Origin: Myxococcota bacterium
GTDB lineage: Bacteria > Myxococcota_A > UBA9160 > PR03
DNA length: 56,562 nucleotides
Assembly (NCBI GenBank): GCA_041611735.1
Contig: JBFIML010000028.1
Span: 1 to 56,562, forward strand
Reading direction: 5' to 3'
How positions within the stretch are numbered: position 1 is the first letter of the stretch; every line of letters starts with the position of its first letter. Positions 33,744-53,264 of the stretch are shown one piece after another. The notes beneath the pieces were generated by a model that was not told where the DNA came from, made no database searches, and saw only the letters and a program-made list of their open reading frames with translations. A program made the translations under genes and the position numbers.

Positions 33744-35924
33744 ATGAGCGAACCCTGCCACGCCTGCGACGATGGACCGGACGGCACCAGCCCGCCGGCC
33801 CCCTCGGGCGCCGTCTCCTACACCTGCCCCATGCACCCGGAGATCGTGCGCGACGCTCCGGGTAGCTGTCCGGTCTGCGGCATGGCCCTCGAGCCACGCA
33901 TCCCCACCGACGAGGAGGGGCTCGGCGAGCTCCGGGACATGACGCGGCGCCTTTGGATTGCGGGGGTACTGAGCGTGCCGCTGCTCGCCATCGCCATGTC
34001 CGACATGATCCCCGGGCGCCCGTTCGAGGACGCCCTGCCGCCAGGCGTTCTCTCCTGGCTGCAGCTCGCTCTCGCGACCCCCGTGGTGCTGTGGGGCGGC
34101 TGGCCCTTCTTCCAGCGCGGCTGGACGTCGCTGCGCACGCGCGCCCTCAACATGTTCACCCTGATCGCCCTGGGGACCGGCGCGGCCTACGTCTACAGCG
34201 TGGTGGCGACCCTGACCCCGGGCCGCTTCCCGGCGTCCTTCCACGTGCGGGAGGGCGAGGTGGGGGTCTACTTCGAGGCGGCAGCGGTGATCGTGACGCT
34301 CGTGCTGCTCGGGCAGGTACTCGAGCTGCGCGCGCGCCACCGCACGGGCGCGGCGATCCGGGCGCTGCTGGGCCTCGCTCCCAAGAGCGCCCGGCGCATC
34401 GGCCCGGACGGCCGGGAGGAGGACGTGCCCCTGGCGCAGGTGCAGCCCGGGGATCGGCTGCGCGTGCGCCCGGGCGAGAAGGTGCCCGTGGACGGCGTCG
34501 TCCTCGAAGGAACCAGCGCCGTGGACGAGTCCATGGTGACCGGCGAGCCGATGCCCGTGACGAAGCGCGCAGGGGATCCGGTGGTGGGGAGCACCGTGAA
34601 CGGCACCGGGTCGATGGTGATCCGGGCCGAGCGCGTGGGCGCGGAGACGCTCCTCGCCCAGATCGTGCAGAGGGTGGCCGAGGCCCAGCGCAGCCGCGCG
34701 CCCATCCAGCGCCTGGCCGACGGGGTCGCCGCCTGGTTCGTGCCTGCCGTGATCGTCGTCGCGGCGCTGACCTTCGTCGTCTGGGGCTGGCTCGGACCCG
34801 AGCCGCGCATGGCCCACGCGCTGGTGAACGCCGTGGCGGTGCTGATCATCGCCTGCCCGTGTGCTCTGGGCCTCGCCACCCCCATGTCCATCATGGTGGC
34901 GACGGGAAAGGGGGCGACCGCGGGCGTGCTGTTCAAGAACGCCGAGGCCATCGAGTCGATGCGCAAGGTGGACACCCTCGTGGTGGACAAGACCGGCACC
35001 CTGACCGAGGGCAAGCCCAAGCTGGTGACCCTCGAGCCCGCCGCGGGGTGGGCCGACGACGAGCTCCTGCGCCTGGCCGCGAGCCTCGAGCGGGCCAGCG
35101 AACACCCGCTGGCCGCAGCCATCGTCGCCGGCGCTCGGGAGCGGGGGGCCTCCCCGGCGCCGGTCGAAGGCTTCGAGTCCCTCACCGGGCGCGGCGTGCG
35201 CGGCCGGGTGGAAGACCGCAGCCTGGCGCTCGGCAACCGCAAGCTGCTGGACGAGCTCGGGATCGAGGTCGGGTCCCTGGCTGCGCGCGCCGAGGCCCTG
35301 CGCGGCGAAGGCCAGACGGTCCTGTTCGCCGCCGTGGACGGGAAGCTCGCCGGCCTCGTGGGCGTCGCCGATCCCATCAAGGAGACGACTCCCGAAGCGA
35401 TCCGGACCCTGCACGCCGAGCGCGTCCGCATCGTGATGGTGACCGGCGACAGCCGCACCACCGCCCAGGCGGTGGCGCGCCGCCTCGGACTCGACGAGGT
35501 GATCGCGGAGGTCCTCCCCGAGCGGAAGCTGGAGGAGGTGAAACGCCTGCAGGCGGAAGGGCGCATCGTGGCCATGGCCGGCGACGGCATCAACGACGCC
35601 CCGGCCCTGGCCCAGGCGCACGTGGGGATCGCCATGGGGACGGGCACCGACGTGGCGATGGAGAGCGCCGACGTGACCCTGGTGAAGGGGGACCTGCGCG
35701 GGATCGTGCGGGCGCGACGTCTCTCGCGCGCGACGCTCCGCAACATCAAGCAGAACCTCTTCTTCGCCTTCGTCTACAACGGGCTGGGCGTCCCCGTCGC
35801 GGCCGGTGCCCTGTACCCGTTCCTCGGGCTGCTACTGAGCCCCATGATCGCCGCCGCGGCCATGAGCGCGAGCTCCGTGTCCGTGGTGGGCAACGCCCTG
35901 CGGCTGCGCCGCGTCGCCCTGTGA
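33744..35924 (+). CDS. copA: Cu(I)-exporting P1B-type ATPase
   Basis: N-terminal YTCPMHP...[34 protein letters not shown] and MSASS motifs. Confidence 0.96.
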
Positions 35925-37669: not shown

Positions 37670-38353
37670 TCACGGAGCCTGAGCGGCCCCGCTACGCGCC
37701 AGGCGGCGTCGCAGCAGCCAGGCGAGCGGCGCGGCCAGGACGAGGGCGGCCAGCAGCGGCGCCAGGGCGTGTCCCAGCACCAGGTGGCGCAGACCCGCGA
37801 AGGGGCAGGTCGCGTGCACCACCAGGGCGCCCGTGGCCACGGCACCCGCCACGGCGAGGCCCATCACCAGGGGGGGACGCTGGGGTGCGGCTCCGGACAC
37901 GAAGCCGACCAGCGCGGCGGCGGGCGCCAGGCCGACCAGCAGGGCGCCGAGCAGGCAGACGCCGTCGCGCGTCCAGGGCGGCGAGGCGGCGCCCGCCGGG
38001 AGCACCCACAGCAGCGGTCCGGCCACCATGCCCAGCGCCGCAGCGGCGGCCAGCAGGGCGAGACCGAGCCGCTCGACGCCATCGCGACCCGGCACGCTCG
38101 CGCCGAGGGCCGCGAGCGCACCGCCTACCGCCGCCAGCGCGAGTCCACCGAAGAGGGCCGCGAAGCCCGGCGCCGAAGCCAGCAGCCCACCCAGATCCTG
38201 ACGCAGTCCCGAGAGCCCGAGCGCCAGCGCCGCCGCGAGCAAGCCAGCGGCGGCCGCGCCGAGACCCGCCACGCGCAGCCGCGCCACGCGGCGCACCGGA
38301 CGCAGGTCGCGCGCCAGCTCCCGGACCAGGCGCTCGCTGGCCGCTTCGCTCAC
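37670..38353 (-). CDS. NrsF-family (DUF1109) membrane anti-sigma factor
   Basis: GTGA-coupled to the ECF sigma; LVRELARDLRPVRR, about 6 TM, SVPGR, Cys in GVCL and HATCP, APQRP. Confidence 0.85.
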   Translation of the reverse strand: MSEAASERLVRELARDLRPVRRVARLRVAGLGAAAAGLLAAALALGLSGLRQDLGGLLASAPGFAALFGGLALAAVGGALAALGASVPGRDGVERLGLALLAAAAALGMVAGPLLWVLPAGAASPPWTRDGVCLLGALLVGLAPAAALVGFVSGAAPQRPPLVMGLAVAGAVATGALVVHATCPFAGLRHLVLGHALAPLLAALVLAAPLAWLLRRRLARSGAAQAP

Positions 38354-38916
38354 GGCCGGCTCCCTGCCAGCCGCTTGCGCAGGGCCTGGTAGCCCCGGTG
38401 CGCCCGCACCTTCAGGGCCCCGGGCGTGGTCCCCACCCGCAGCGCCGCCTCCGCCACCGAGAGGCCCTCCAGGTGCAACAGCTCCACGGCCTCCCGCTGG
38501 CGGGGGGGCAGCTCCGCCAGGGCCCGGGCCAGGTCCGGGGACAGCGCCTGGCGCTCCAGCTCGGCCCCGAGGTCGGGGGCCACGAGCTCGACCTCCTCCA
38601 GGCCGATCTCCGGCCCGCGCCGCGCCCGCGCCCGGACGAGGTCGATCACCGCATGGCGTGCGATGGCGCGCCACCAGGGGCCGAAGGGTCGCTCGGGCCG
38701 GAAGGTGTGACGGGAGCGGTGGATGGAGAGCAGCGTGGTCTGCACGACGTCCTCCGCAGCCGGTCCGGCCAGCCGGCCGCGAACGAACGCCCGGAGTACC
38801 GGCAGGAGGTCGCGCAGCAGCCGTTCGTAGGCCCGGGCATCGCCCTCCTGGGCCGCCGCCATCCAGGCGCGCCAGCGCTCGTCGCGCTGGCTCTCCCCGG
38901 GTGTTCGCTCGCTCAT
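38350..38916 (-). CDS. ECF sigma factor, SigF/EcfF (NrsF-associated) type
   Basis: MAAAQEGDARAYERLL, AEDVVQTTLLSIHRSRHTF, ALKVRAHRGY; adjacent NrsF. Confidence 0.92.
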   Translation of the reverse strand: MSERTPGESQRDERWRAWMAAAQEGDARAYERLLRDLLPVLRAFVRGRLAGPAAEDVVQTTLLSIHRSRHTFRPERPFGPWWRAIARHAVIDLVRARARRGPEIGLEEVELVAPDLGAELERQALSPDLARALAELPPRQREAVELLHLEGLSVAEAALRVGTTPGALKVRAHRGYQALRKRLAGSRP

Positions 38917-38976
38917 ACGTGGCAACGGCCCCTCCGGTTACGCCCTCCAGCGTAACCGCCCGGCCCGTTCAGCGTA
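38916..38976. promoter_or_regulatory. Back-to-back ECF-type promoters GTAACC-N15/16-CGTA
   Basis: Plus strand: GTAACC 38952-57, N15, CGTA 38973-76. Minus strand: GTAACC 38941-36, N16, CGTA 38919-16. Together they form the inverted repeat CGGTTACGC-N6-GCGTAACCG. Confidence 0.7.
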
Positions 38977-39006
38977 GTGCAGAGGCGAGCAAGAAGGAGC
39001 CCACCC

Positions 39007-39597
39007 ATGTGGAACCGGGGGCAAGATGCAGACGGCAGGTCCGTGGGGCGGCGGTCGTCGCAAGCCGAGGCCCGCGCCCTACCCTGTCACGACCGGGAGC
39101 AGCTCGGCGCCCTGCTCCTGACCCTGGAGCCGCGCCTGACCGCCGTGGCCCTGCGCCTCACGCGCGATCCGGACATCGCCCGCGACGTGGTCCAGAGCGC
39201 CTTCGAGAAGGTGGTGCGGCACTGCAGGCGCTTTCGGGGCGGCTCCAAGGTCTCCACCTGGATGCATCGCATCGTGGCCAACGAAGCGCTCATGTGGCTG
39301 CGCAGGGAGCGACGCCGCACGGATCGGACCGCTGCCGTCGCGGACTGGGCGGAGACCTCGATCGCCGATCCGTTGCCCAGCGCCCCGGAGCTGCTGGAGC
39401 GCGCTCGCGCCAGCCAGCAGGTGCGGCGCGGGCTGGACGCCCTGCGTCCGGAAGAGCGTGAGATCCTCGAGCGCTGTACGCTGGAAGGGGAGAGCTATCT
39501 GCAGCTCAGCGCCGAGACCGGGATCCGTCCCGCCGCGCTCAAGAGCCGTGCCTTTCGGGCTCGCCGCCACCTCGGCGAGATCCTGGCGGAGGGCTGA
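39007..39597 (+). CDS. ECF sigma factor
   Basis: SD AAGGAG; ARDVVQSAF, FRGGSKVSTWMHRIVANEAL (region 2), ALKSRAFRAR (region 4). Confidence 0.9.
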   Translation: MWNRGQDADGRSVGRRSSQAEARALPCHDREQLGALLLTLEPRLTAVALRLTRDPDIARDVVQSAFEKVVRHCRRFRGGSKVSTWMHRIVANEALMWLRRERRRTDRTAAVADWAETSIADPLPSAPELLERARASQQVRRGLDALRPEEREILERCTLEGESYLQLSAETGIRPAALKSRAFRARRHLGEILAEG

Positions 39598-40869: not shown

Positions 40870-42297
40870 ATGCTGGGGGGCTACGAGCCGGGCTGGGCTT
40901 CCCTGGCCCCGGCGGCGGTGGCGATCCTCCTCGCCTTCGCCACGCGCCAGGTGATCCTCGCGCTCTTCGCGGGGATCGTGACCGGCAGTGCAGTGCTGGT
41001 GCTCTCCACCGGCCAGCTGGCCGACGCGAACTTCATCACGCGCTTCCTGCTGCCGGCGGTGGGCTCAAGCGCCTACGCCAAGATCCTGCTCATCTACCTC
41101 TGGTGCCTGGGCGGCCTGATCGGCATCTGGGAAACCACCGGGGGCGCCCGCCACTTCGCGGAGACGGTGGGACGCCGGATGGCCCGCGGTCCGGCTTCGG
41201 CGCTCGTCTACACCTGGCTGCTCGGGGTGGTCTTCCACCAGGGCGGCACCGTCAGCACCGTACTGGCCGGCACCACGGCCCGTCCCGTGGCGGATCGCCA
41301 CCGGGTGAGCCACGAGGAGCTGGCCTACGTGGTGGACTCCACCGCCTCGCCGGTGGCCACGGTGCTGCCCTTCAACGCATGGCCCGCCTTCGTGGCGGCC
41401 CTGGTGGTGGGAACCATCCCGCTCTTCCCGGACGAGCAGGCGGGCGTGCGCTTCTTCTTCGCGGCGGTGCCCTTCAACTTCTACGCCCTGTTCGCGGTGA
41501 CCTCGACGCTGCTCTTCGCGGTCGGCCGCCTGCCCTGGGTGGGAGGCACCATGGGTCGCGCGCGGGAGCGGTCGCGGGGCAGCGGAGCCCTGGATGCCCC
41601 GAGCGCGCAGCCCATGCTCCAGGAGCTTCCCACGGAGTGGGTGCCGGGGAGGCCGTACGCACCCAGCCTGGCGGACTTCGCGGTGCCCATTGGCGTGCTG
41701 CTCGGCATGGCCATCCTGCCCTACGTGATCTGGCAGGCCGACTGGATCAACGAGGCCTTCCTCTCCTGCGTGCTGGCGGCGGTGGTGGTGGCGCGCGCGC
41801 GGGGCATGCCGACCCGCGACGTGGTGGACGGCTTCGTGCGCGGCTGCCAGCGCATGACCATCGGCGCCATCATCCTGGGTCTCGCCGTGACGCTCGGCAG
41901 CGTCTCGAAGGAGCTGGAGACCGCCGCCTTCCTGGGCGCCCGGCTGGGCGAACACCTGCCGGAGCTGGCGCTCCCCGCCCTCCTCATGGTGCTGTGCATG
42001 GTGATCGCCTTCTCCACGGGCACCTCCTGGGGCACCTACGCCGTGGTCTTCCCGGTGGCCATGCCGCTCGCCTGGGGAGTGAACCCGGACCCCTTCTACA
42101 TGAAGGTCTGCTTCGGGGCGGTGCTCGGCGGCGCGGTGTTCGGCGACCAGTGCTCGCCCATCTCGGACACCACGATCCTGTCCAGCATGTTCACGGGCTG
42201 CGACCTGATGGATCACGTGAAGACGCAGCTCCCCCTGGCCCTGGCGGCCGCGGGGCTCGGCGCCCTCGTCTCGACCCTGCTGGTCGCGAGCGGCTAG
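40870..42297 (+). CDS. Na+/H+ antiporter NhaC-family transporter
   Basis: WASLAP..VAILLA, SHEELAYVVDSTASP, FSTGTSWGT, GAVFGDQCSPISDTTILSS, DHVKTQLP. Confidence 0.93.
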   Translation: MLGGYEPGWASLAPAAVAILLAFATRQVILALFAGIVTGSAVLVLSTGQLADANFITRFLLPAVGSSAYAKILLIYLWCLGGLIGIWETTGGARHFAETVGRRMARGPASALVYTWLLGVVFHQGGTVSTVLAGTTARPVADRHRVSHEELAYVVDSTASPVATVLPFNAWPAFVAALVVGTIPLFPDEQAGVRFFFAAVPFNFYALFAVTSTLLFAVGRLPWVGGTMGRARERSRGSGALDAPSAQPMLQELPTEWVPGRPYAPSLADFAVPIGVLLGMAILPYVIWQADWINEAFLSCVLAAVVVARARGMPTRDVVDGFVRGCQRMTIGAIILGLAVTLGSVSKELETAAFLGARLGEHLPELALPALLMVLCMVIAFSTGTSWGTYAVVFPVAMPLAWGVNPDPFYMKVCFGAVLGGAVFGDQCSPISDTTILSSMFTGCDLMDHVKTQLPLALAAAGLGALVSTLLVASG

Positions 42298-43633
42298 AGC
42301 GGATCTTCGGGACAGGACTCCGGGGATCGGACGCCCCGGCCCGGCGAGCCGCGAGGGCCTCACGCAGGCCCAGGTAGGTGGTCAGGTCGCGCGCCTCGCC
42401 GAGCGTCCGAAGCGCCGACGCGAGGGCCGGCTCCTCGAGTCCGGCCGAGAGGCGCACCGCGACGCCCTCCGAGACGAGCTGCAGCGGGCCGCGCAGGCCA
42501 CGCGCCCCGAAGTCGTCGAGGCGCAGGGCGGAGGCGGCGACGAACTCCGCCGCCTCGGCGTCGGAGTCGAAGCGGATCCACAGGCCGACCGCGAGGCCGT
42601 CCGCACACTCGAAGACCACGAAGCGGTCCCCGTCCCATCCGGCGGCGGCCGCCTCCGCCTCGGCCCGGGTCGCCCCGCGCTCCTGCAGCCACAGACGCAG
42701 GCCGAGCTCGCCGAGCGTGTCCCGGTGCACCTCGCCGCAGCCGGGAGCCAGCTCCCCAGCGGAGGCCACCTCCAGCAGGGTCGGCGCATCGCGCCGCGCC
42801 GGATCCAGCCAGCGCTCCGGGTGGAGCAGCTGCTCGCTGGAGAGCGGCGGGTCGTGCAGCGCCGCGTCCAGGGCCGGCGGCCCGGCGCGCTCGGCCAGGC
42901 GGTAGGCCAGCGCGTAGCCGAGGGTGTACTGGAGCGCGAGGGGCTCGCGCACCGCGCGGGGAAGGTGCGGATGGGTGGCGGCGAGCCAGCCCGGGCCCAG
43001 CTCCGCGGCGAGCTCCCAGGGCGTCGCCATGCGTCCCGCACCCATGGCGGCCGCGTCTTGCTGCTCGGCCCAGGTGGCGTCCCCTTCGAGCAGGGCGCTC
43101 AGGGCGAAGGCCAGGTCCGCCTCGTCCCACAGCACCGCCAGCAGATCCGCCACGGGCGCGTGCTCGGCCTGCAGCGCATGGACGAGCTCGTGCACCACCA
43201 CGCGCTCGCGTTCCGGATCCCGGTCGGCGGCCGCGTGGGATCGGCCCGACTCGACCACGTAGGTGGTGCGGGTGGCGGGAGAGAAGAAGCCCACGGCCAC
43301 GTCCCCGAAGAGCTCGAGCAGGGCGGGCCGCAGGGCGGTCCCCGGCGGGAGCTGGCCCACGGCAACGCCGGCCCGCTCCACCCGCTCCAGGCGGTCGCCG
43401 GGGAACAGATGCGCCGCCTCCCGGGCCAGTAGAGCCGGCAGCGCCTCCCGGGGCACCTGGCGAAGGGGGACGGGCGAGCCGAAGGCGAGACCGCGGGCCG
43501 CTTCGGCGCGGCGAACGAGCTCGGGAAGCCAGGACGGTGCCAGCTCCGGGTGCAGCGCGGCACACGCCAGACCTGCCGCGGCCAGGACGACGGACAGGAG
43601 CCGGATTCCCGTGCCGGTAGACCGCAGGCTCAT
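42191..43633 (-). CDS. Putative lipoprotein zinc metallopeptidase (HExxH)
   Basis: Lipobox-like AGLA|C, GFFSP, VVVHELVHALQ, ALLEGDA, PPLSSEQLLHPE, DTLGELG, AAGWDGD. Last ~50 aa are low quality and overlap the nhaC-like gene. Confidence 0.8.
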   Translation of the reverse strand: MSLRSTGTGIRLLSVVLAAAGLACAALHPELAPSWLPELVRRAEAARGLAFGSPVPLRQVPREALPALLAREAAHLFPGDRLERVERAGVAVGQLPPGTALRPALLELFGDVAVGFFSPATRTTYVVESGRSHAAADRDPERERVVVHELVHALQAEHAPVADLLAVLWDEADLAFALSALLEGDATWAEQQDAAAMGAGRMATPWELAAELGPGWLAATHPHLPRAVREPLALQYTLGYALAYRLAERAGPPALDAALHDPPLSSEQLLHPERWLDPARRDAPTLLEVASAGELAPGCGEVHRDTLGELGLRLWLQERGATRAEAEAAAAGWDGDRFVVFECADGLAVGLWIRFDSDAEAAEFVAASALRLDDFGARGLRGPLQLVSEGVAVRLSAGLEEPALASALRTLGEARDLTTYLGLREALAARRAGASDPRSPVPKIRSSRSRPAGSRRGRRAPRPPGPGGAASSRDPSGRSP

Positions 43634-43815
43634 GGTCGCACTCTATCGCCCGGGCCCCCGAGATCTTTTCCCCGCGGGGCATGACCGGCAGCCGAAGCTC
43701 CCTCCCCATCGTCGGCTCAAGCGTTTTTGGGGAGCACCCGATCTGTCTGGCGGGGAGCTCCCGACGCGGCCGCGTCGGGGCGCCGGACCTGGTTTCGGGT
43801 CCTGGGGGGAGACCC

Positions 43816-45819
43816 ATGACAGCCCAGTTTCGACCTGGCCCGCGCCCGCGTGCGGTCCTGGGCCCGGCGGCCCTCGCCGTCGTCCTCGGGCTTGCGCTCG
43901 CCGGGGAACCCGCGCGCGCGGCGGACCCGCGGGCGGATCTCTCGCGCCTGAGCCTCGAGGAGCTCATGGAGGTCGAGGTCACCTCGGTCTCGAAGCGCGC
44001 CCAGAAGCTCTCGGAGGCGCCGGCCGCGGTGACGGTCCTGACCGCGGACGACCTGCGTCGCTCCGGTCACACGAGCATCCCCGAGGCCCTGCGCATGGTG
44101 CCCGGCCTGCACGTGGCGCGCATCGACGCCAACAAGTGGGCCATCACGTCGCGGGGCTTCAACGGCCGCTTCGCCAACAAGCTGCTGGTGCTGATCGACG
44201 GACGCAGCGTGTACACCCCGCTCTTCTCCGGCGTCTACTGGTCCGTGCAGGACGTCCCCCTGGAGGACGTGGACCGCATCGAGGTGATCCGCGGCCCCGG
44301 CGGGACGCTCTGGGGCGCCAACGCCGTGAACGGGGTCATCAACATCATCACCAAGCCCGCACGCGACACCCAGGGCGCGCTGCTCTCGGCCGGCGCCGGC
44401 AGTCACGAGCGTGCCTTCGGCACCGCGCGCTGGGGAGGCGCGGTCGGTGAGAACCTCCACTACCGCCTCTACGGCAGGGGTTTCGATCGCGATGCCTTCC
44501 GGACCTCCGGGAACGAGGAGGCCACCGACGGGTGGGACGTGCTGCGGACCGGCTTCCGCCTGGACTGGGAGCTGGGAGACCGGGACACGCTGACCCTCCA
44601 GGGTGACGCCTACGACGGCGACGCCGGCCAGGGCTTCGTGTTCGCGCCCGGCCGCGACCGCATCGACCTGCGCGGGGCCAACCTGCTGAGCCGCTGGACA
44701 CGGAGCCATTCCGAACGCTCCCAGACCATGCTGCAGGCCTACTACGATCGTAGCGAGCGGGAGGAGGGACTGGCCGGCGAGACCCGCGACACCTTCGACT
44801 TCGAGCTGCAACACGACTTCGCGCTCTCGGACCTGCACCAGCTCACCGCGGGCCTCAACTACCGCGTAACCGCCGATCGCATCGACGGCACGCCCTTCGT
44901 CGGTTTCACGCCCGACGCGCAGACCGACAATCTGGTGGGAGCCTTCGTGCAGAGCCAGCGGACGCTGGTTCCCGGGCGCCTATCCGCCACGGTCGGCTCC
45001 AAGTTCGAGTACAACGAGTACACCGGCTTCGAGATCCAGCCGACCGGGCGGCTGTTGTGGACGCCGAGCGAGCGCCACACCTTCTGGAGCGCCGTCTCGC
45101 GCGCCGTCCGCACCCCGTCGCGGGCCGACACGGGCGTCTCCCTGCTGCTGCCGTCCGACACGCCGGGGCTCTTCCTGGCACTCGAGGGCAACCGCCGCTT
45201 CGAGTCGGAGAACCTGCTGGCCTACGAGATCGGCTACCGGGGTCTCCTGCGCCACAACCTGACCGTGGATGCGGCGGCCTTCTACTTCGAATACGACGAC
45301 CTGCGCTCGCTGGAGGTGACCGGCCCGCCCGCCTTCTCGGCCTTCCCGCCGCCGGGCGCCTTCGTGGCTCCGGCCCGCTTCGAGAACCGGCTGGACGGGC
45401 ACTCCTACGGCCTCGAGTTCGAGAGCACCTGGCAGGCCACCCAGCGCTGGAAGCTCTCTGCGGGCTGGACCCTCTTCAAGCTGCAGCTCTCCCGGGACCT
45501 GGACAGCAACGACCCGGTGGCCGAGGGCAACGAGGACGACAGCCCGGCCCACCAGCTCCACCTGCGCTCGTCCCTGGACCTGCCCGGGAACCTCGAGCTC
45601 GACGCCGCGGTGTACTACGTGGGCAAGATCGACGGCCAGAACGTCGGCTCCTACTGGCGCGGGGACCTGCGCCTCGGCTGGAAGGTCCGCGAGGACCTGG
45701 AGCTCGCCCTGGTGGGCCAGAACCTGTTCGACCACGCCCACCCGGAGTACGGCGAGTTCTTCGCGATCCCGACGGAGATTCCGCGGAGCTTCTACGTGGG
45801 AGTCACCTGGCGTCACTAG
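43816..45819 (+). CDS. TonB-dependent outer-membrane receptor
   Basis: Signal peptide, LSLEELMEVEVTSVSKR, plug motifs LLVLIDGR and IEVIRGPGGTLWGANAVNGVINIITK, beta-barrel ending PRSFYVGVTWRH. Confidence 0.95.
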   Translation: MTAQFRPGPRPRAVLGPAALAVVLGLALAGEPARAADPRADLSRLSLEELMEVEVTSVSKRAQKLSEAPAAVTVLTADDLRRSGHTSIPEALRMVPGLHVARIDANKWAITSRGFNGRFANKLLVLIDGRSVYTPLFSGVYWSVQDVPLEDVDRIEVIRGPGGTLWGANAVNGVINIITKPARDTQGALLSAGAGSHERAFGTARWGGAVGENLHYRLYGRGFDRDAFRTSGNEEATDGWDVLRTGFRLDWELGDRDTLTLQGDAYDGDAGQGFVFAPGRDRIDLRGANLLSRWTRSHSERSQTMLQAYYDRSEREEGLAGETRDTFDFELQHDFALSDLHQLTAGLNYRVTADRIDGTPFVGFTPDAQTDNLVGAFVQSQRTLVPGRLSATVGSKFEYNEYTGFEIQPTGRLLWTPSERHTFWSAVSRAVRTPSRADTGVSLLLPSDTPGLFLALEGNRRFESENLLAYEIGYRGLLRHNLTVDAAAFYFEYDDLRSLEVTGPPAFSAFPPPGAFVAPARFENRLDGHSYGLEFESTWQATQRWKLSAGWTLFKLQLSRDLDSNDPVAEGNEDDSPAHQLHLRSSLDLPGNLELDAAVYYVGKIDGQNVGSYWRGDLRLGWKVREDLELALVGQNLFDHAHPEYGEFFAIPTEIPRSFYVGVTWRH

Positions 45820-45868
45820 GGCGGAGCCTGCAACGGTGCAGCCACGCGGCGCGGACGAGGTATCGGCG

Positions 45869-46408
45869 GTGAGGCGGATCGGAGGCATCCTGCTGCTCGG
45901 GCTCCTGGGGCTCGCGGCGCTCCCGGCGTCTGCGAACCCGGCGCGCGAGTACGAGGTGAAGGCCGCCTTCCTGCTGAACTTCGCCCGCCTGGTGCACTGG
46001 CCCGACACGGCCTTCACCGCTCCGGACATGCCGATTCGCGTGGTGTGCTTCGCCCGGAATCCCTTCGCGGGCGCCCTCGAGGCAATCCTGGCCCAGGAGA
46101 CGGTCCAGGGTCGCGCCTTCCGGGTCGAGACCACGCAACGCCTGGCAGACGTGCGCGGGGCCCACCTGGTCTTCGTCCCCGCCGACCAGGCCGGCGCCCT
46201 GGACGACCTGGAACGCACCGTGGAGGACGCGCCCGTGCTCCTGGTGGGCGAGAGCGAGGGATTCGCCGCCCGGGGCGGCGTCATCAACCTCTACACCGAG
46301 GACGGACGCATCCGCTTCGAGATCAACCGCAAGGCCGCGGAGCGCCGGGGGCTGCGCTTGAGCTCGCGGCTGCTGCGCCTCGCGCGCTTGGTGGCGGAGC
46401 AGCGCTAG
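45869..46408 (+). CDS. YfiR-family periplasmic protein
   Basis: Signal peptide, EYEVKAAFLLNFARLVHWP, HLVFV, GGVINL, RIRFEIN..AA...GLRLSSRLLRLA. Confidence 0.92.
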   Translation: MRRIGGILLLGLLGLAALPASANPAREYEVKAAFLLNFARLVHWPDTAFTAPDMPIRVVCFARNPFAGALEAILAQETVQGRAFRVETTQRLADVRGAHLVFVPADQAGALDDLERTVEDAPVLLVGESEGFAARGGVINLYTEDGRIRFEINRKAAERRGLRLSSRLLRLARLVAEQR

Positions 46409-48454
46409 ATGGCGCCCACCCGCCCTTCCTCCATCGGACGTCGCCTGGCCGGGACGCTCTTCCTGACCAGCGGGGTGGCCGTGACCCTGGCCTGCGTCGT
46501 GCTGGTCCTCTACGACACGATCTCGCTCCGGCACGCCACGGCCCGGGAGGTGCTCACCCTGGCCCGGGTGATCGGTCTCAACACCGCCGACGCGCTCCGC
46601 TTCTCGGACCCCGAAGCGGCCCGCCTCACCCTGCAATCGCTCAGCGCGGCGCCGGAGGTGCTCCAGGCGGTGGTCTACGATGCCGCCGGGCGTCCCTTCG
46701 CCCGCTACCGGGCCAGTGCGTCCCGGAGCGGTGAGCTGCCTCCGCCGCCCTCGAACCGCCCCCACTTCCACCGCTTCCACGACCACCACCTGGACGCCTA
46801 CCGCGAGCTCGTGCTGGGAGGCGAGAAGATCGGAGCCATCGGCGTACGCTGGGACACGCGGCCCCTGGTGCGCCGCGTGCAGAGCTATCTCGGCATCGTG
46901 GCGGTCCTGCTACTGGCCGTCTACGGCGTCTCGCGCTGGATGGCGCGGGTGCTGCGCGACCGCGTGGCAGACCCCCTGGTCGCCCTGGCCCACGGCGCCC
47001 AGGCCGTGGCCGAGGGTCGGCTCGCCACGCGCGTCTCCGCCACGGGCGACGACGAGATCGGGACGCTGGCGCGCTCCTTCAACGCCATGGCTGCGGGCCT
47101 GCGCGACCTCGTCACCCGCGTGCGCGAGAACATGGAGGCGGTCAGTGAGGTTGCCGAGGCGCTGCGCGAGGATTCCGGCCGCATCTCCGCCGACGCCGCG
47201 CGCCAGGAGGGCGCCGTGGGGGAGGCGTCGACCTCGATCGGCCAGGTCACCGGCTCGATCCACGACGTGAACGAGAGCGTGAGCCAGCTGGCCGATCGCG
47301 CCCGCGACACCTCCAGCTCGATCGTCCAGATGGACGCCGCCATCAACGGGGTGGCGGCCCACATGGACCGCCTGGCGGAGTCGGCGGAGGAGTCGTCCTC
47401 CGGAGCGCTCGAGATGGCGGCCAAGGTGCGAGAGATCGTGGCGGCCATGGAGAGCCTCGAGGAGGCCACCGACGAGACCGCCGCCCGCCTGCGTCAGCTC
47501 GCGGAGTCCGTGGCGCGGGTCGAAGGCAACGCGCGCGAATCGGGGGATCTCTCCCGCGAGGCCAGCGAGGAGGCGGCGCGCGGCATGGGGGCGGTCGAGG
47601 AGACCATGCTCTCCATGCGCGAGATCCGCAGCAGCTTCGAGCGCATCCAGGGCAACGTGCGCGGGCTCGCCCAGCAGTCGGAGGCGATCGGGGACATCCT
47701 GGCGGTGATCGAGTCCGTGGTGACGCAGACCAACCTGCTGGCGCTCAATGCCGCCATCATCGCCTCCCAGGCCGGAGAGCACGGCAAGCCATTCGCGGTG
47801 GTGGCAGAGCAGGTGAAGACCCTGGCGGAGCGCACCTCCCGCTCCACCCGCGAGATCGCCGCACTGATCCAGGGCGTCCAGAGCGAGACCGCCGCCACGG
47901 TGGGCGCAGTGGAGGCAGGCTCGGAGAAGGTCGCCCAGGGCGTGGCGCGTTCCAGCGAGGCCGGGGAAGTGCTCAAGGCGATCATGGAGAAGGCGGATCG
48001 CACCGCGCGTCGGGTGAGCGAGATCGTGGAAGCCACCGCCCGACAGACCGAGGACATTCGCGACGTGGAATCGGCCATGGCCCGCGTGCGCAGCCTGGTG
48101 GAGCAGACCAATCGCTCCACCCATGAGCAGGAGAAGGTGGGCTCCGAGATCGCCGCGGTGGTGGAGCGGATCCGGGCGCTGGGACTCGAGGTGAAGCACT
48201 CCACCAGCGAGCAGCGCGGTCAGAGCCGGCGCATCACCGGGGCCGTGGAGGCGGTAGCCGGGGGGGTCGACCAGATCCGCGAGGCCACCGAGGCCCAGAC
48301 CCAGGAGAGCGAGCGGATCCATCACGCACTCGGGGTGTTCCGGGAGGTGGCCGCGGAGAGTGCGCGCCGCGGCGAGGCCTTCCACCGCATGGTCAAGACG
48401 CTCGCCGAACGGTCGCGGCGCCTGGAAGAGGCCATCGACCGCTTCGAAACCTGA
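46409..48454 (+). CDS. Methyl-accepting chemotaxis protein with CHASE8-like periplasmic sensor and HAMP
   Basis: TM1, ALRFSDPEAARLTLQSL...AVVYDAAGRPFARY, TM2, HAMP (DDEIGTLARSFNAM), signalling tip QTNLLALNAAIIASQAGEHGKPFAVVAEQVKTLAERT. Confidence 0.93.
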   Translation: MAPTRPSSIGRRLAGTLFLTSGVAVTLACVVLVLYDTISLRHATAREVLTLARVIGLNTADALRFSDPEAARLTLQSLSAAPEVLQAVVYDAAGRPFARYRASASRSGELPPPPSNRPHFHRFHDHHLDAYRELVLGGEKIGAIGVRWDTRPLVRRVQSYLGIVAVLLLAVYGVSRWMARVLRDRVADPLVALAHGAQAVAEGRLATRVSATGDDEIGTLARSFNAMAAGLRDLVTRVRENMEAVSEVAEALREDSGRISADAARQEGAVGEASTSIGQVTGSIHDVNESVSQLADRARDTSSSIVQMDAAINGVAAHMDRLAESAEESSSGALEMAAKVREIVAAMESLEEATDETAARLRQLAESVARVEGNARESGDLSREASEEAARGMGAVEETMLSMREIRSSFERIQGNVRGLAQQSEAIGDILAVIESVVTQTNLLALNAAIIASQAGEHGKPFAVVAEQVKTLAERTSRSTREIAALIQGVQSETAATVGAVEAGSEKVAQGVARSSEAGEVLKAIMEKADRTARRVSEIVEATARQTEDIRDVESAMARVRSLVEQTNRSTHEQEKVGSEIAAVVERIRALGLEVKHSTSEQRGQSRRITGAVEAVAGGVDQIREATEAQTQESERIHHALGVFREVAAESARRGEAFHRMVKTLAERSRRLEEAIDRFET

Positions 48455-48477
48455 AACCGGCACGAGGAGTCGACCCC

Positions 48478-49206
48478 ATGGGAGAACAAAGCGAGGTGCT
48501 GGTGCTCGACCTGGGACCCGAGAGTCTCGGCTCCCTGGTGCTGCGCATCCGGCGCCTGCGGCTGCCCGTGCTGCACGCCCGCGCCCCCGGCGAGGCGGAG
48601 CGCCTGATCGACGCCGAAGGCGAGCGGATCCGCGCCGTGCTCTTCCACCCCGAGCTGCCGGAAGCGGAGCGACAGGGGCTAATGACCCAACTACGCCAGC
48701 AGGCCTTCGAAGGCCCGCCGACCCTCGTGGTGGTGGGACGCCCTCCGAGCGCAGAGATCCGCGCCGGCCTGCGCGCGGAGGGGTTGGAGCAGGCCCTGTG
48801 GGAGCCCTTCGACGACCGGACCCTGCGCTTCGTGGTGAACGAGGCGCTGGCCCCGCCGTCGGCGCGGGCCACGCGCGAGGGCATCCGGGTGCCCGCCTCG
48901 GTGATGGCGCGCGTCGAGAGTGGGGGCCGCGTGCGCCAGGTGCACACCTACAGCCTGTCCACCACCGGGGCGTTCCTGGAGACACCGCGCCCTTCCGTGC
49001 GCGGGACCCGCCTCGGCGTGGAGATCCCGTTGCCCGACGGAGTGCTGCTTGCGGAGGCCCAGGTGGTGTTCTCCAACGTGCCCGGCAACCTGCAGCGGCC
49101 CAACCTGCCCCTGGGCATGGGGGTCCGCTTCGACGGGTTGAGCCGCGAGGAAGCAGCCCGTCTGCGCCGCTGCGTGGAGGCGCGGGCCACCCAGCTGCTG
49201 GTCTAG
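48478..49206 (+). CDS. PilZ-domain protein with degenerate receiver-like N-terminus
   Basis: SD GAGGAG; REGIR (RxxxR), SLSTTGAFLET, AEAQVV, GMGVRF. N-terminal alpha/beta region ending LWEPFD..TLRFVV. Confidence 0.82.
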   Translation: MGEQSEVLVLDLGPESLGSLVLRIRRLRLPVLHARAPGEAERLIDAEGERIRAVLFHPELPEAERQGLMTQLRQQAFEGPPTLVVVGRPPSAEIRAGLRAEGLEQALWEPFDDRTLRFVVNEALAPPSARATREGIRVPASVMARVESGGRVRQVHTYSLSTTGAFLETPRPSVRGTRLGVEIPLPDGVLLAEAQVVFSNVPGNLQRPNLPLGMGVRFDGLSREEAARLRRCVEARATQLLV

Positions 49207-49209
49207 TGC

Positions 49210-49845
49210 CTAGGGGTCGGGGGTCGGAGCGCCGACGACCCGCGCGCGCAGGGTCTCGGCCAGGGCCCGGAAGGCCAGCGCCCGGTGGGAGATCCGGTTC
49301 TTGCGGCTGGCGGGCAGCTCGGCCATGGAGCGACCCTCCCCCTCCACCGCGAAGATCGGGTCGTAGCCGAAGCCGCCTTGGCCGCGGGGGGCCTCGAGGA
49401 GGCGGCCCGTGCACTCGCCCCGGGCGGTCGTCACGCTGCCGTCGGGCCAGGCGAGTGCCGCGACGCACACGAAGCGGGCGCTGCGCCGCTGGGCCGGCAC
49501 CCCCTCCAAGGCGGCCAGCAGCGCGCGCACGCGGCCGGCGTCGTCGAGCCCGGCGCCTCCGTAGCGAGCCGAGCCAGGACCGGGGCCGCCGTCCAGCGCC
49601 TGCACTTCCAGGCCCGAGTCGTCCGCCAGGGCCGGGCGCCCGGCGCCGTGGGCCGCGGCACGCGCCTTGGCCACGGCGTTCGCCTCGTAGTCGTCGCCCT
49701 CCTCGGGGAGCCAGACCTCCGGAAAGGCGCCCACGCTGCGGAGCGAGAGCGGCAGGTCGCCCAGGATGGCGCGGATCTCCAGCAGCTTGCCCGGGTTGGA
49801 GGTGGCGACCACCACCTCCCGGTAGGAAGCTCGCCCCCCGCTCAC
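49210..49845 (-). CDS. rdgB: Non-canonical purine NTP pyrophosphatase
   Basis: ATSNPGK, ALADDSGL, GFGYDPIF, KNRISHR; coupled to rph. Confidence 0.96.
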   Translation of the reverse strand: MSGGRASYREVVVATSNPGKLLEIRAILGDLPLSLRSVGAFPEVWLPEEGDDYEANAVAKARAAAHGAGRPALADDSGLEVQALDGGPGPGSARYGGAGLDDAGRVRALLAALEGVPAQRRSARFVCVAALAWPDGSVTTARGECTGRLLEAPRGQGGFGYDPIFAVEGEGRSMAELPASRKNRISHRALAFRALAETLRARVVGAPTPDP

Positions 49846-51494: not shown

Positions 51495-53264
51495 TCAGGA
51501 GCCTTCCGGTGCCGCCCTGGCGGGGTCGGGCTCCGGCGTGAACCCTTCGAAACTCGCCCCGGCGGGAACCGGCTCGCCGAAAAGCGCCCCCTGCACGAGC
51601 TCGCAGCCGTAGCGGCGCAGGAGCGCCAGCTGCTCCGCGCTCTCCACGCCCGCGGCCCCCACCTCCAGGTCCAATCTGCGCGCCAACGCGATCAATGCCT
51701 CTGCCACGCGCTCCTTGGAGGCATCGCAACCCAATCCAGCCACGATGGAACGGTCCAGCTTCACGCCGACCGCCCCCGTGCCCTCGAGGTCCAGCAGCGA
51801 GAAGCGCCCCGCGCCGAAATCGTCGATCCAGACCCGAACGCCCAGCTTTCGCAACAGCTCCAGGGTCGTTCGCAGCACGCCCGGTTCGTCGTTGACGCCG
51901 TTCTCGCTGATCCCGATCTCGAGCCTGCGGGCGTCCAATCCGGAGTCTCGGAGGCACCCTTTCAGGGTCGCAACGAAGTTCTTCTGGCGCAGCTGGCGCA
52001 AGCTCACGCTCACGGCGACCCGCACGCCGCGGCTGACCACCTCGCTCCACCGCATCGCGTCCTCGCAGGCCCGGCGCAGCAGCCACTCGCCGATCTGGAG
52101 CAAGACGCCCGACCCCTGCGCCGCAGGCATGAACTCCTCGGCGTCCAGCAGGCCGCGCCGCGGATGGCGCCAGCGAAGCAGCGCCTCGACGGCCAGCAAC
52201 TGGCCCGTTGCGCTGTGCACCCGCCGCTCGTAGTGGACGACCATCTCCTTGCGTCCGAGCGCGCCTTCCAGGTCGTCTCGCAGACCGGCCGGGTCCCGGG
52301 CAACGGGGTCGTGGCCTTCGTCCAGGTGGAAGCGGTACTGGCTGGGTCCCGCTGCCTTGGCGCGGTACATCGCCGCATCGGCGTGGCGGATCAGCGTGGC
52401 CGCGTTGCGCCCGTCGCGGGGAAAGACGGCGATCCCGATGCTGGCGCTCAGCGAGAGTTCCTGCCCCCCCACCAGGTACGGCCGGGCCAGGGCGGACACG
52501 AGCTTCTCCGCCACCACGGCCGGATCCCCTTCGCGCAAGACGTCCTGTGCGACCACGACGAACTCGTCTCCCCCCAGGCGGGCGGAGAGGTCGCTGCGCC
52601 GCACGGTGTTCGCCACGCGTTCGCCGACGGCCTTGAGGATCTCGTCCCCCACGTGATGGCCCAGGTCGTCGTTGATCCGCTTGAAGTCGTTCAGGTCGAT
52701 GAACAGAATGGCCAGTTGCTTGTCGTTGCGGGAGGCGTAGGCCAGCACCCGGCCGAGTTGATCCTGGAAGTAGGCGCGATTCGGGAGGCCGGTGAGCCCA
52801 TCGTGGTTGGCCAGGAAGTATTCGCGCCGCCGGGCCAGCGTGAGCTCGGAGAGAAGCCGGTGGCGCTCGATGGCGCTGCGCAGCGTTCGGAGCACGGTCA
52901 TGCGATCCGACTCGTGCTTGATCAGGAAGTCCTGGGCCCCGTAGCGCAGCGCCTTGAAGGCCAGGTCCTCCTGATCGGACCCCACCAGGACGATGACCGG
53001 GACGGTCCAGGCCATGACACGGGCCCGAACCAGCGTTTCCTCTCCCCACGCATCCGGAAGACTCAGGTCGAGGAGCACCGCGTCGAAGAGCTCGTCCTTG
53101 ATCCGGCGCGCCGCCTCTTCGAAGCCACGAGCAGCGTGAGTCTGGAAGCGGGTGTCATCGCAGCTCTCCAGCAGCTGCCGCAACCGCTTGCCCTCGGCCG
53201 CGTCGTCCCCGACGAGCAGGATCCGGAGCTGTTGGGCAATGGGTGCGTCCAAGATTTCCGTCAT
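51495..53264 (-). CDS. REC-GGDEF-EAL protein (intact GGDEF, degenerate EAL)
   Basis: REC LLDLSLPD; HDGLTGLPNR, INDDLGH..GD, RRSD I-site, RLGGDEF; EAL domain VEALLRW and DDFG with several catalytic substitutions. Confidence 0.93.
   Translation of the reverse strand: MTEILDAPIAQQLRILLVGDDAAEGKRLRQLLESCDDTRFQTHAARGFEEAARRIKDELFDAVLLDLSLPDAWGEETLVRARVMAWTVPVIVLVGSDQEDLAFKALRYGAQDFLIKHESDRMTVLRTLRSAIERHRLLSELTLARRREYFLANHDGLTGLPNRAYFQDQLGRVLAYASRNDKQLAILFIDLNDFKRINDDLGHHVGDEILKAVGERVANTVRRSDLSARLGGDEFVVVAQDVLREGDPAVVAEKLVSALARPYLVGGQELSLSASIGIAVFPRDGRNAATLIRHADAAMYRAKAAGPSQYRFHLDEGHDPVARDPAGLRDDLEGALGRKEMVVHYERRVHSATGQLLAVEALLRWRHPRRGLLDAEEFMPAAQGSGVLLQIGEWLLRRACEDAMRWSEVVSRGVRVAVSVSLRQLRQKNFVATLKGCLRDSGLDARRLEIGISENGVNDEPGVLRTTLELLRKLGVRVWIDDFGAGRFSLLDLEGTGAVGVKLDRSIVAGLGCDASKERVAEALIALARRLDLEVGAAGVESAEQLALLRRYGCELVQGALFGEPVPAGASFEGFTPEPDPARAAPEGS

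Follow-up and report, generated by a model that had tools for sequence, protein, structure and literature searches.

The stretch of DNA analyzed here (the window) is the whole of contig C28, 56.5 kb in length, from genome G000 (4.09 Mb in 118 contigs, 95% complete, about 74% G+C). Four open reading frames (ORFs) on the plus strand occupy positions 43816-49206 and encode a TonB-dependent receptor (TBDR), a YfiR-like periplasmic protein, a methyl-accepting chemotaxis protein (MCP) and a protein with a pseudo-receiver and a PilZ domain. The main finding is that the YfiR-like protein is paired with a CHASE8 sensor whose output is a chemoreceptor, and that this pairing is kept among relatives. On balance the locus is probably an envelope-sensing variant of the TOL_0244/TOL_0243 type, in which the YfiR-like protein, by analogy with YfiBNR, would set the state of the CHASE8 domain of an MCP feeding the array encoded on contig C9 of the same genome.

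The ORFs (43681/43816..45819, 45836..46408, 46409..48454 and 48478..49206, all plus strand) are separated by gaps of 16, 0 and 23 nt, so that the ATG of the MCP gene comes straight after the stop codon of the YfiR-like gene. An earlier reading of the window, made from the sequence only, had described four tightly spaced co-directional genes with the MCP starting 1 nt past the YfiR stop, and the coordinates agree on both points. The upstream neighbour (42191..43633, minus strand) is divergent and the downstream neighbour, rdgB (Ham1/RdgB), is convergent. Given this arrangement and the tight same-strand spacing, the four genes look like one operon. All frames are intact, and third-position G+C (GC3) is 0.91-0.93 in each of the four genes.

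The YfiR-like protein and the adjacent chemoreceptor

The MCP (46409..48454, plus strand, 681 aa) was predicted from Pfam, NCBIfam and a structural model to comprise a first transmembrane helix (TM1), a CHASE8 sensor, a second transmembrane helix (TM2), a HAMP domain and a signalling hairpin of about 64 heptads. Pfam placed the periplasmic CHASE8 sensor at residues 40-144 (46526..46840, plus strand; 52.8 bits, cut-off 27), HAMP at residues 184-233 (46958..47107, plus strand; E 1.2e-12) and MCPsignal at residues 380-563 (135.9 bits, cut-off 34.6) of the hairpin (47108..48454, plus strand). The tip motif is conserved, with the tip residue Glu457 lying within NLLALNAAIIASQAGEHG (residues 442-459). 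No HisKA/HATPase and no GGDEF domain was detected in the MCP by Pfam. The CHASE8-like/HAMP sensor on an MCP domain that had been proposed for this gene was thus recovered by the domain scan of 46409..48454. The distance from the end of HAMP (233) to the tip (457) is 224 residues, as is that from the tip to the C-terminus (681), which by length gives 32 + 32 heptads; a 64H class of MCP is listed in the accessible text of PMC6943060 and PMC8235581. The protein contains a single strict match to the methylation consensus (residues 570-579), and Gln574 was invariant in 20 of 20 aligned family members.

Residues 8-229 of the MCP matched NF053592 'HK_near_YfiR_like' (sensor histidine kinase, YfiR-like protein-associated) with an E-value of 1.4e-46, and the N-terminus matched DgcN/YfiN with an E-value of 1.8e-17 (63.4 bits, below the cut-off of 325). 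Both matches are sub-cut-off; together with the CHASE8 hit they support the YfiN-type sensor that had been suggested earlier. In the AlphaFold2 model of the CHASE8 region (predicted local distance difference test, pLDDT, 91.2), two membrane helices enclose a pair of helices, the first of them long, and a five-stranded sheet. The best fold matches of this model were the sensor domains of WalK/YycG, CitA and DctB and the Cache domains of chemoreceptors, and the sensor is predicted to have a single-Cache/PDC fold.

The gene preceding the MCP (45836..46408, plus strand) encodes a protein with a signal peptide and a DUF4154 domain (PF13689, E 3.7e-43), and is the sole DUF4154 gene of the genome. 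It scored 146 bits against NF053591 (TOL_0243; cut-off 125) and 24.4 bits against the YfiR equivalog model NF053586 (cut-off 85), so that it belongs with the TOL_0243 family and falls outside the YfiR equivalog. A profile built from 24 orthologues matched the solved P. aeruginosa YfiR (E 6e-12). According to the accessible text of PMC4887326, F151, E163, I169 and Q187 near the C-terminus of that protein form a putative YfiN site, which overlaps the YfiB interface and whose pocket binds vitamin B6 and L-Trp. Within the YfiR-like family, conservation is highest in the C-terminal stretch RFEIN...LKISSRLLRLA, and YfiR Glu163 aligns with the E of the RFEIN motif in the profile alignment.

Conservation of the gene pair was assessed in 32 other genomes with a full-length MCP orthologue, one of which (G373) is cut by a contig end, leaving 31. 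In 26 of these 31 genomes a YfiR-like gene immediately precedes the MCP in the same orientation, indicating a pairing beyond chance. A tip-motif scan, whose loci overlap with this set, gave the same arrangement at eight of nine assessable loci. In one genome (G127) only a 19-residue YfiR-like match was present upstream of the MCP. A TOL_0243-like gene occurred in 10 of 41 order-level genomes, and the sole copy was MCP-linked in six of the ten; kinase-type neighbours of TOL_0243-like genes were seen in G018, G037 and G024. In most genomes of the set the YfiR-like protein has no other CHASE8 partner. No conserved gene was found downstream of the MCP, where the neighbours vary by genus (DUF2855, amidohydrolase, MgtC, MFS and unknown secreted proteins). 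In family f7 the YfiR-MCP pair is closely followed by genes for an oligosaccharyltransferase of the AglB/STT3 type and for an AAA ATPase (L034:355-2559 and L035:575-2824, both minus strand).

The two proteins were also compared at the sequence and structure level. The pairwise divergence of the YfiR-like protein and that of the MCP periplasmic domain were correlated (r 0.87); after controlling for the cytoplasmic domain, a partial r of 0.53 remained, which none of 5000 permutations attained. Relatedness among sequences inflates the significance of tests of this kind, so the correlation counts as weak evidence. A complex prediction for MCP residues 36-160 (24-row alignment) and YfiR-like residues 36-190 scored 0.15 against a mark of 0.32, which speaks neither for nor against binding. 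By analogy with YfiBNR, we infer that the YfiR-like protein binds the MCP.

An exhaustive HMMER search with sensor residues 1-240 as the query returned 12,419 cluster representatives at E <= 1e-3, of which 5,133 passed E <= 1e-10. Outputs were assigned for the best 150 of these relatives by phmmer seeded with the proteins of this analysis, and comprised 95 histidine kinases, 26 MCPs and 29 unclassified proteins, 15 of the latter being shorter than 330 aa. The 26 MCP-type relatives were mostly 676-689 aa long, and MCPs made up nine of the top ten sensor matches. A FastTree phylogeny of the sensor parts was built from 149 rows (the 150 representatives minus two shorter than 235 aa, plus the window sensor). 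It grouped 26 of the 27 MCP rows, the window included, in one clade with an SH-like support of 98, and the MCP label needs two changes on the tree. By this grouping, the fusion of sensor and MCP was essentially a single old event, which defines the family.

Among 401 sampled Myxococcota genomes, an MCP orthologue (E <= 1e-75) was found in 30, including that of the window. The other 29 all belong to the same order (families f1, f4, f7, f8, f9, f10 and f12), and no match was obtained in the genomes of families f13 and higher in this sample. The orthologues are 36-80% identical across the seven families, with a patchy distribution in the window's own family (2/16). All nine order-level relatives with a full-length orthologue hold at least one further MCP of the long type. 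The tip-motif scan of species-representative genomes with a full-length MCP alignment yielded 80 loci, which overlap with the orthologue set and are not additive to it. This sensor type was carried by ten of them, all from uncultured metagenome-assembled genomes (MAGs) labelled Myxococcota or Deltaproteobacteria.

Some candidates were rejected. Long tip-scan matches in Hyalangium, a Deltaproteobacteria MAG and a Nitrospirae MAG had neither this sensor nor a YfiR-like gene. The locus in G017 (L041) was rejected as a paralogue inside a che cluster, and that in G036 (L039) as a 580-aa form without CHASE8. The latter protein (L039:3724-5466, minus strand, family f4) is 45% identical to MCP residues 207-679, has HAMP and MCPsignal domains, and has no YfiR-like neighbour. 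Three records labelled Spirochaetales or Spirochaetaceae (L076, L090 and L118) carry the Myxococcota-type YfiR-MCP locus; these labels are probably wrong.

With CitA, DctB and chemoreceptor Cache domains, all of them ligand-binding, among its best fold matches, the Cache-fold domain of the MCP might itself bind a small ligand. The YfiR-like protein would then act elsewhere, or only deliver the ligand, and would not be a repressor. That four genomes keep the MCP without an adjacent YfiR-like gene fits this explanation, as does the reported binding of vitamin B6 and L-Trp by YfiR (accessible text of PMC4887326). It is nevertheless improbable in view of the pairing in 26 of 31 genomes with abutting genes (0-nt gap), the homology of the sensor to YfiN and to YfiR-associated kinases, and the lack of another CHASE8 partner for the YfiR-like protein in most of these genomes.

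The TonB-dependent receptor as a facultative member

The first gene of the operon (43816..45819, plus strand) encodes a TBDR of the TOL_0244 family with a signal peptide, a Plug domain (E 1.4e-22) and a 22-strand-type barrel domain (E 1.6e-28). The ATG at 43816 opens the signal peptide and is preceded by a GGGGGAG motif, so the longer ORF start at 43681 is probably not real. In the long ORF the Plug spans residues 110-219, and about 30 residues separate it from the signal peptide. The score against NF053590 (TOL_0244) was 713.8 bits (714.2 bits in the genome-wide search), above the cut-off of 645, and no other copy in the genome, which has very few TBDRs, exceeded that cut-off.

A TBDR gene precedes the YfiR-MCP pair in only five of 25 assessable loci (G003, G002, which is cut by a contig end, G019, G035 and G176), indicating that the receptor is facultative and not a fixed first step. 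The sequence-only reading had proposed that the outer-membrane receptor passes its signal through YfiR into a chemosensory array. The YfiR-MCP link of that chain is supported by the 26 of 31 adjacencies, whereas the TBDR step is weakened by the five of 25 loci and by the lack of an extra N-terminal signalling domain in the Pfam matches of the receptor. Likewise, of the TBDR-YfiR-MCP triplet expected in relatives, the pair was recovered and the TBDR mostly was not; the PilZ gene follows the MCP in only one of the 31 genomes, the closest relative (G003).

With 20 of the 25 YfiR-MCP pairs having no adjacent TBDR, the YfiR-like protein and the MCP could be a complete two-gene sensor by themselves, responding to a cue in the periplasm or envelope. 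The TBDR would then be a co-transcribed transporter that stems from an ancestral operon and has no part in signalling. Pfam detected only Plug and barrel in the TBDR, with no FecA-type N-terminal signalling (STN) domain, and in family f7 the gene upstream of the YfiR-MCP pair is a divergent one for a large tetratricopeptide repeat (TPR) protein. Of five genomes without an adjacent TBDR, four hold sub-cut-off relatives elsewhere (550-629 bits), which stand alone with no YfiR-like gene beside them. These observations are offset by the curation of the TBDR family as an equivalog on the basis of its YfiR-like neighbourhood, and by the scores of its members. The TBDRs adjoining YfiR-MCP that were scored (G003, G019, G035 and locus L085) reached 662-708 bits, all above the TOL_0244 cut-off, while an orphan copy in G022 fell under it (617.5 bits). 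At least four families (f1, f4, f10 and f12) of the order have moreover retained the TBDR next to the pair, and the sole TOL_0244 member of a genome with very few TBDRs adjoins YfiR-MCP. The two-gene sensor is a possible, if somewhat unlikely, explanation.

At the other extreme, the TBDR would gate the array. The YfiR-like protein would inform the 64-heptad MCP that a substrate whose size or scarcity puts it out of reach of porins is being bound or imported. A cell without flagella could then steer its surface motility, or a behaviour linked to c-di-GMP via the neighbouring PilZ protein and the REC-GGDEF-EAL enzymes close by. This proposal is unlikely. If true, the TBDR-gated array would be a three-compartment chemosensory relay without a described counterpart, in which behaviour follows outer-membrane import.

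Two further arrangements were seen. In G222 the TBDR gene lies immediately before the MCP gene, with no space for a YfiR gene. In a kinase-type module of the same order (L172, G018:C70), a TOL_0244-like TBDR gene is divergent from the genes of the YfiR-like protein and the sensor, so that adjacency is kept and operon structure is not.

Candidate array, PilZ protein and proposed mechanism

No che genes are present in the window, but the genome holds four MCPs and two che clusters, on contigs C9 and C52. In the C9 cluster, genes for a DUF4388 protein, CheY, CheA, CheW, CheW, an MCP of 860 aa and a zinc-ribbon protein are followed farther along by those for CheR and CheB. The C52 cluster, which has a Dif-like MCP, is ordered MCP-CheW-CheY-Hpt-CheA-CheC/X. 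The tip of the C9 MCP, NLLALNAAIIASQAGEHG, which is an unusual one, is identical to that of the window MCP at 18 of 18 residues, and the whole cytoplasmic domains align with three short gaps. Tip identity was lower for the other MCPs, namely 14/18 for an orphan on C11 and 12/18 for the C52 protein, which is also far shorter. Orphan MCPs were assigned to Che systems from phylogeny and the CheW-contact region by Moine et al. 2014 (accessible text of PMC3945109). Following this approach, the window MCP was assigned to the C9 pathway on the basis of the shared tip and the whole-domain alignment, and the C9 cluster is likely to be its cognate array. The search of the genome for a cognate che cluster, which the sequence-only reading had advised, has thus produced a candidate.

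Identity of the C9 cluster with Che4 of M. xanthus was rejected, as Mcp4 is only 538 aa long (Table 1 of PMC3945109, in its accessible text). FliG_C and Flagellin_N were not found in the genome search, indicating that the output is not flagellar rotation. Away from both che clusters, a 1052-aa frame on contig C69 (C69:1010-2380, plus strand) contains CheB and CheR domains and is likely to encode a CheB-CheR fusion with further domains. A third CheR of the genome is encoded on C80.

The lack of che genes in the window would fit an orphan MCP without a working array, or a silent operon, in which case the arrangement would have no present function. With four intact frames of strong coding GC3, orthologues kept at 36-80% identity over seven families, and a complete che cluster with a matching MCP tip on C9, this is most improbable.

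The last gene of the operon (48478..49206, plus strand) encodes a 242-aa protein. Its PilZ domain scored 41.2 bits in Pfam (cut-off 22.5), and its fold matches c-di-GMP-bound PilZ domains. In the structural model, residues 6-124 adopt a (beta-alpha)5 topology and match receiver domains (pLDDT 93.4), and residues 133-234 form the PilZ barrel. His57 occupies the phospho-Asp position and Glu109 the Lys position, which marks the first part as a pseudo-receiver; the REC-like domain proposed ahead of PilZ is present in this form. PilZ domains that bind c-di-GMP carry the motifs RxxxR and (D/N)xSxxG. The present protein has RxxxR (R133, R137), which did not vary among 50 aligned homologues; at the second motif it has SLSTTG, whose first position is not D/N. 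The protein family is large (425 clusters at E <= 1e-5). G000 has three paralogues and five relatives have between one and four apiece, those of G019 and G022 having no linkage to the MCP gene. Within the module, the PilZ protein is an addition specific to this lineage.

A REC-GGDEF-EAL gene (51495-53264, minus strand) lies 2.3 kb past the PilZ gene, from which it is separated by rdgB and genes for an RNase PH-like protein and an amidase. In G035 the TBDR-YfiR-MCP set is preceded, at a distance of about 1 kb, by a REC-PAS-GGDEF-EAL gene of the same orientation (L040:557-2875, plus strand). As neighbours, these genes are suggestive of a possible tie to c-di-GMP.

In the mechanism proposed here for the envelope-sensing variant, the secreted YfiR-like protein would bind the periplasmic CHASE8 domain (single-Cache fold) of the MCP dimer and hold it in one signalling state, by analogy with YfiBNR. 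A periplasmic cue would remove or alter the YfiR-like protein, either because a TBDR-imported ligand is bound by it or because it is captured by the outer-membrane receptor. The change would be relayed by HAMP to the hairpin tip. The MCP would join an array of the C9 CheA, two CheW proteins and the 64-heptad MCP, with the C9 CheY, CheR and CheB providing output and adaptation, and the output would be a non-flagellar behaviour. The TBDR would serve as an optional front end, supplying or gating the cue where present, and the PilZ protein may let c-di-GMP act on the pathway.

Several observations weigh against this mechanism, among them the TBDR-less loci, the missing STN domain and the rarity of the PilZ gene behind the MCP, which were described above. 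The sensor scored 158.9 bits against NF053592, under the cut-off of 194, and the Cache/PDC fold binds small ligands directly in other receptors. None of the best 150 sensor relatives classified had a GGDEF output; it had been stated earlier that TBDR-YfiR pairs usually precede GGDEF or histidine kinase genes, and only the kinase part of that statement (95 of the 150) was borne out. With its single cysteine, the YfiR-like protein cannot use the disulfide-based redox sensing that has been reported for YfiR. Four genomes (G032, G207, G222 and G290) have an MCP orthologue without an upstream YfiR-like gene, and in G207 no TOL_0244-like TBDR was found in the genome either. The 64-heptad class was judged by length and not from class profiles, the assignment to C9 was made from tip sequence and length alone, and the host is an uncultured MAG.

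The remaining features surround the operon. The 182-nt intergenic region between the divergent gene and the TBDR gene (43634..43815, not assigned to a strand) is, from the sequence layout, presumed to be the promoter region of the operon, and a scan of 42300-49600 found no sigma-70-like or terminator-like sites. The divergent gene (42191-43633, minus strand) encodes 480 aa with a signal peptide and the HExxH-type motif HELVH, and Pfam gave no match. It may specify a secreted metalloprotease and be served by the same promoter region as the TBDR operon. Farther upstream lie a divergent pair of genes for ECF-type sigma factors (38350..38925, minus strand, and 38977..39597, plus strand), followed by a gene for a DUF3179 protein, and a gene for a heavy-metal P-type ATPase (33744..35924).

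Comparison with known systems

No published account of the YfiR-MCP architecture, or of the TBDR/YfiR-like/kinase set, was found in the literature outside subscription journals, in agreement with the earlier statement that no characterized example was known. CHASE8 was met together with chemoreceptors in a single mention, in a review's list of Cache-clan domains of c-di-GMP enzymes, within the accessible text. Control of the YfiR type is known only for a diguanylate cyclase and, by curation, for histidine kinases, which makes the MCP a third kind of output. Since the MCP version has been kept as a family across one Myxococcota order, the YfiR-like/CHASE8 pair behaves as a portable input module. 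With this locus, the control of a chemoreceptor by a periplasmic partner other than a solute-binding protein can be put to the test. It would also add an input to chemosensory pathways that do not drive flagella, few of whose signals are known. As the MCP and kinase versions can be compared, they also offer a way to ask what the uncharacterized TOL_0244 receptors sense.

In YfiBNR (TpbB/HmsCDE) of P. aeruginosa, E. coli and Yersinia, as in the window, a periplasmic DUF4154 protein is encoded beside an inner-membrane CHASE8-HAMP protein together with an outer-membrane partner, and the C-terminal surface of YfiR is conserved. The window differs in having no GGDEF output, and its YfiR-like protein falls short of the YfiR equivalog and has one cysteine. 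Moreover, the only outer-membrane protein of the operon is a TBDR and not the OmpA/Pal-like lipoprotein YfiB, for which the rest of the genome was not searched.

Cell-surface signalling of the FecA-FecR type resembles the window in that the genes of an envelope signalling chain accompany that of a TonB-dependent receptor of the outer membrane. However, no signalling domain was detected in the window TBDR, the operon contains no anti-sigma or ECF sigma factor gene, and the relay would be a soluble periplasmic protein.

The chemoreceptors Tar and Trg of E. coli sense some of their signals through binding proteins. In these receptors, and in WalK with YycH/YycI (PDB title), an extracytoplasmic accessory protein would set the state of a transmembrane sensor, as proposed for the YfiR-like protein. 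Unlike the partners of Tar and Trg, the window partner is no solute-binding protein but is of the YfiR type, whose known example is a repressor, and the sensor is CHASE8 and not a four-helix bundle.

Precedents for cross-talk between c-di-GMP and chemosensory pathways are Wsp, a Che-like pathway that drives c-di-GMP, and MapZ. The latter is a PilZ protein acting on chemoreceptor methylation through CheR1 (PDB 5xly, by its title). Such cross-talk could explain the PilZ gene behind the MCP and the nearby REC-GGDEF-EAL genes. The window PilZ protein differs in having a pseudo-receiver, in belonging to a multi-copy family and in being MCP-linked in only two genomes.

The closest counterpart is the NCBIfam set NF053590/NF053591/NF053592. 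The first two genes of the window are above the respective cut-offs and have the same order on the same strand, and the third has the same kind of TM-CHASE8-TM-HAMP sensor. It differs in that this sensor scores below the cut-off and its output is an MCP hairpin instead of HisKA/HATPase. The TBDR/YfiR-like/kinase set is thus already curated by NCBIfam, and what is new in the present locus is the MCP as its output.

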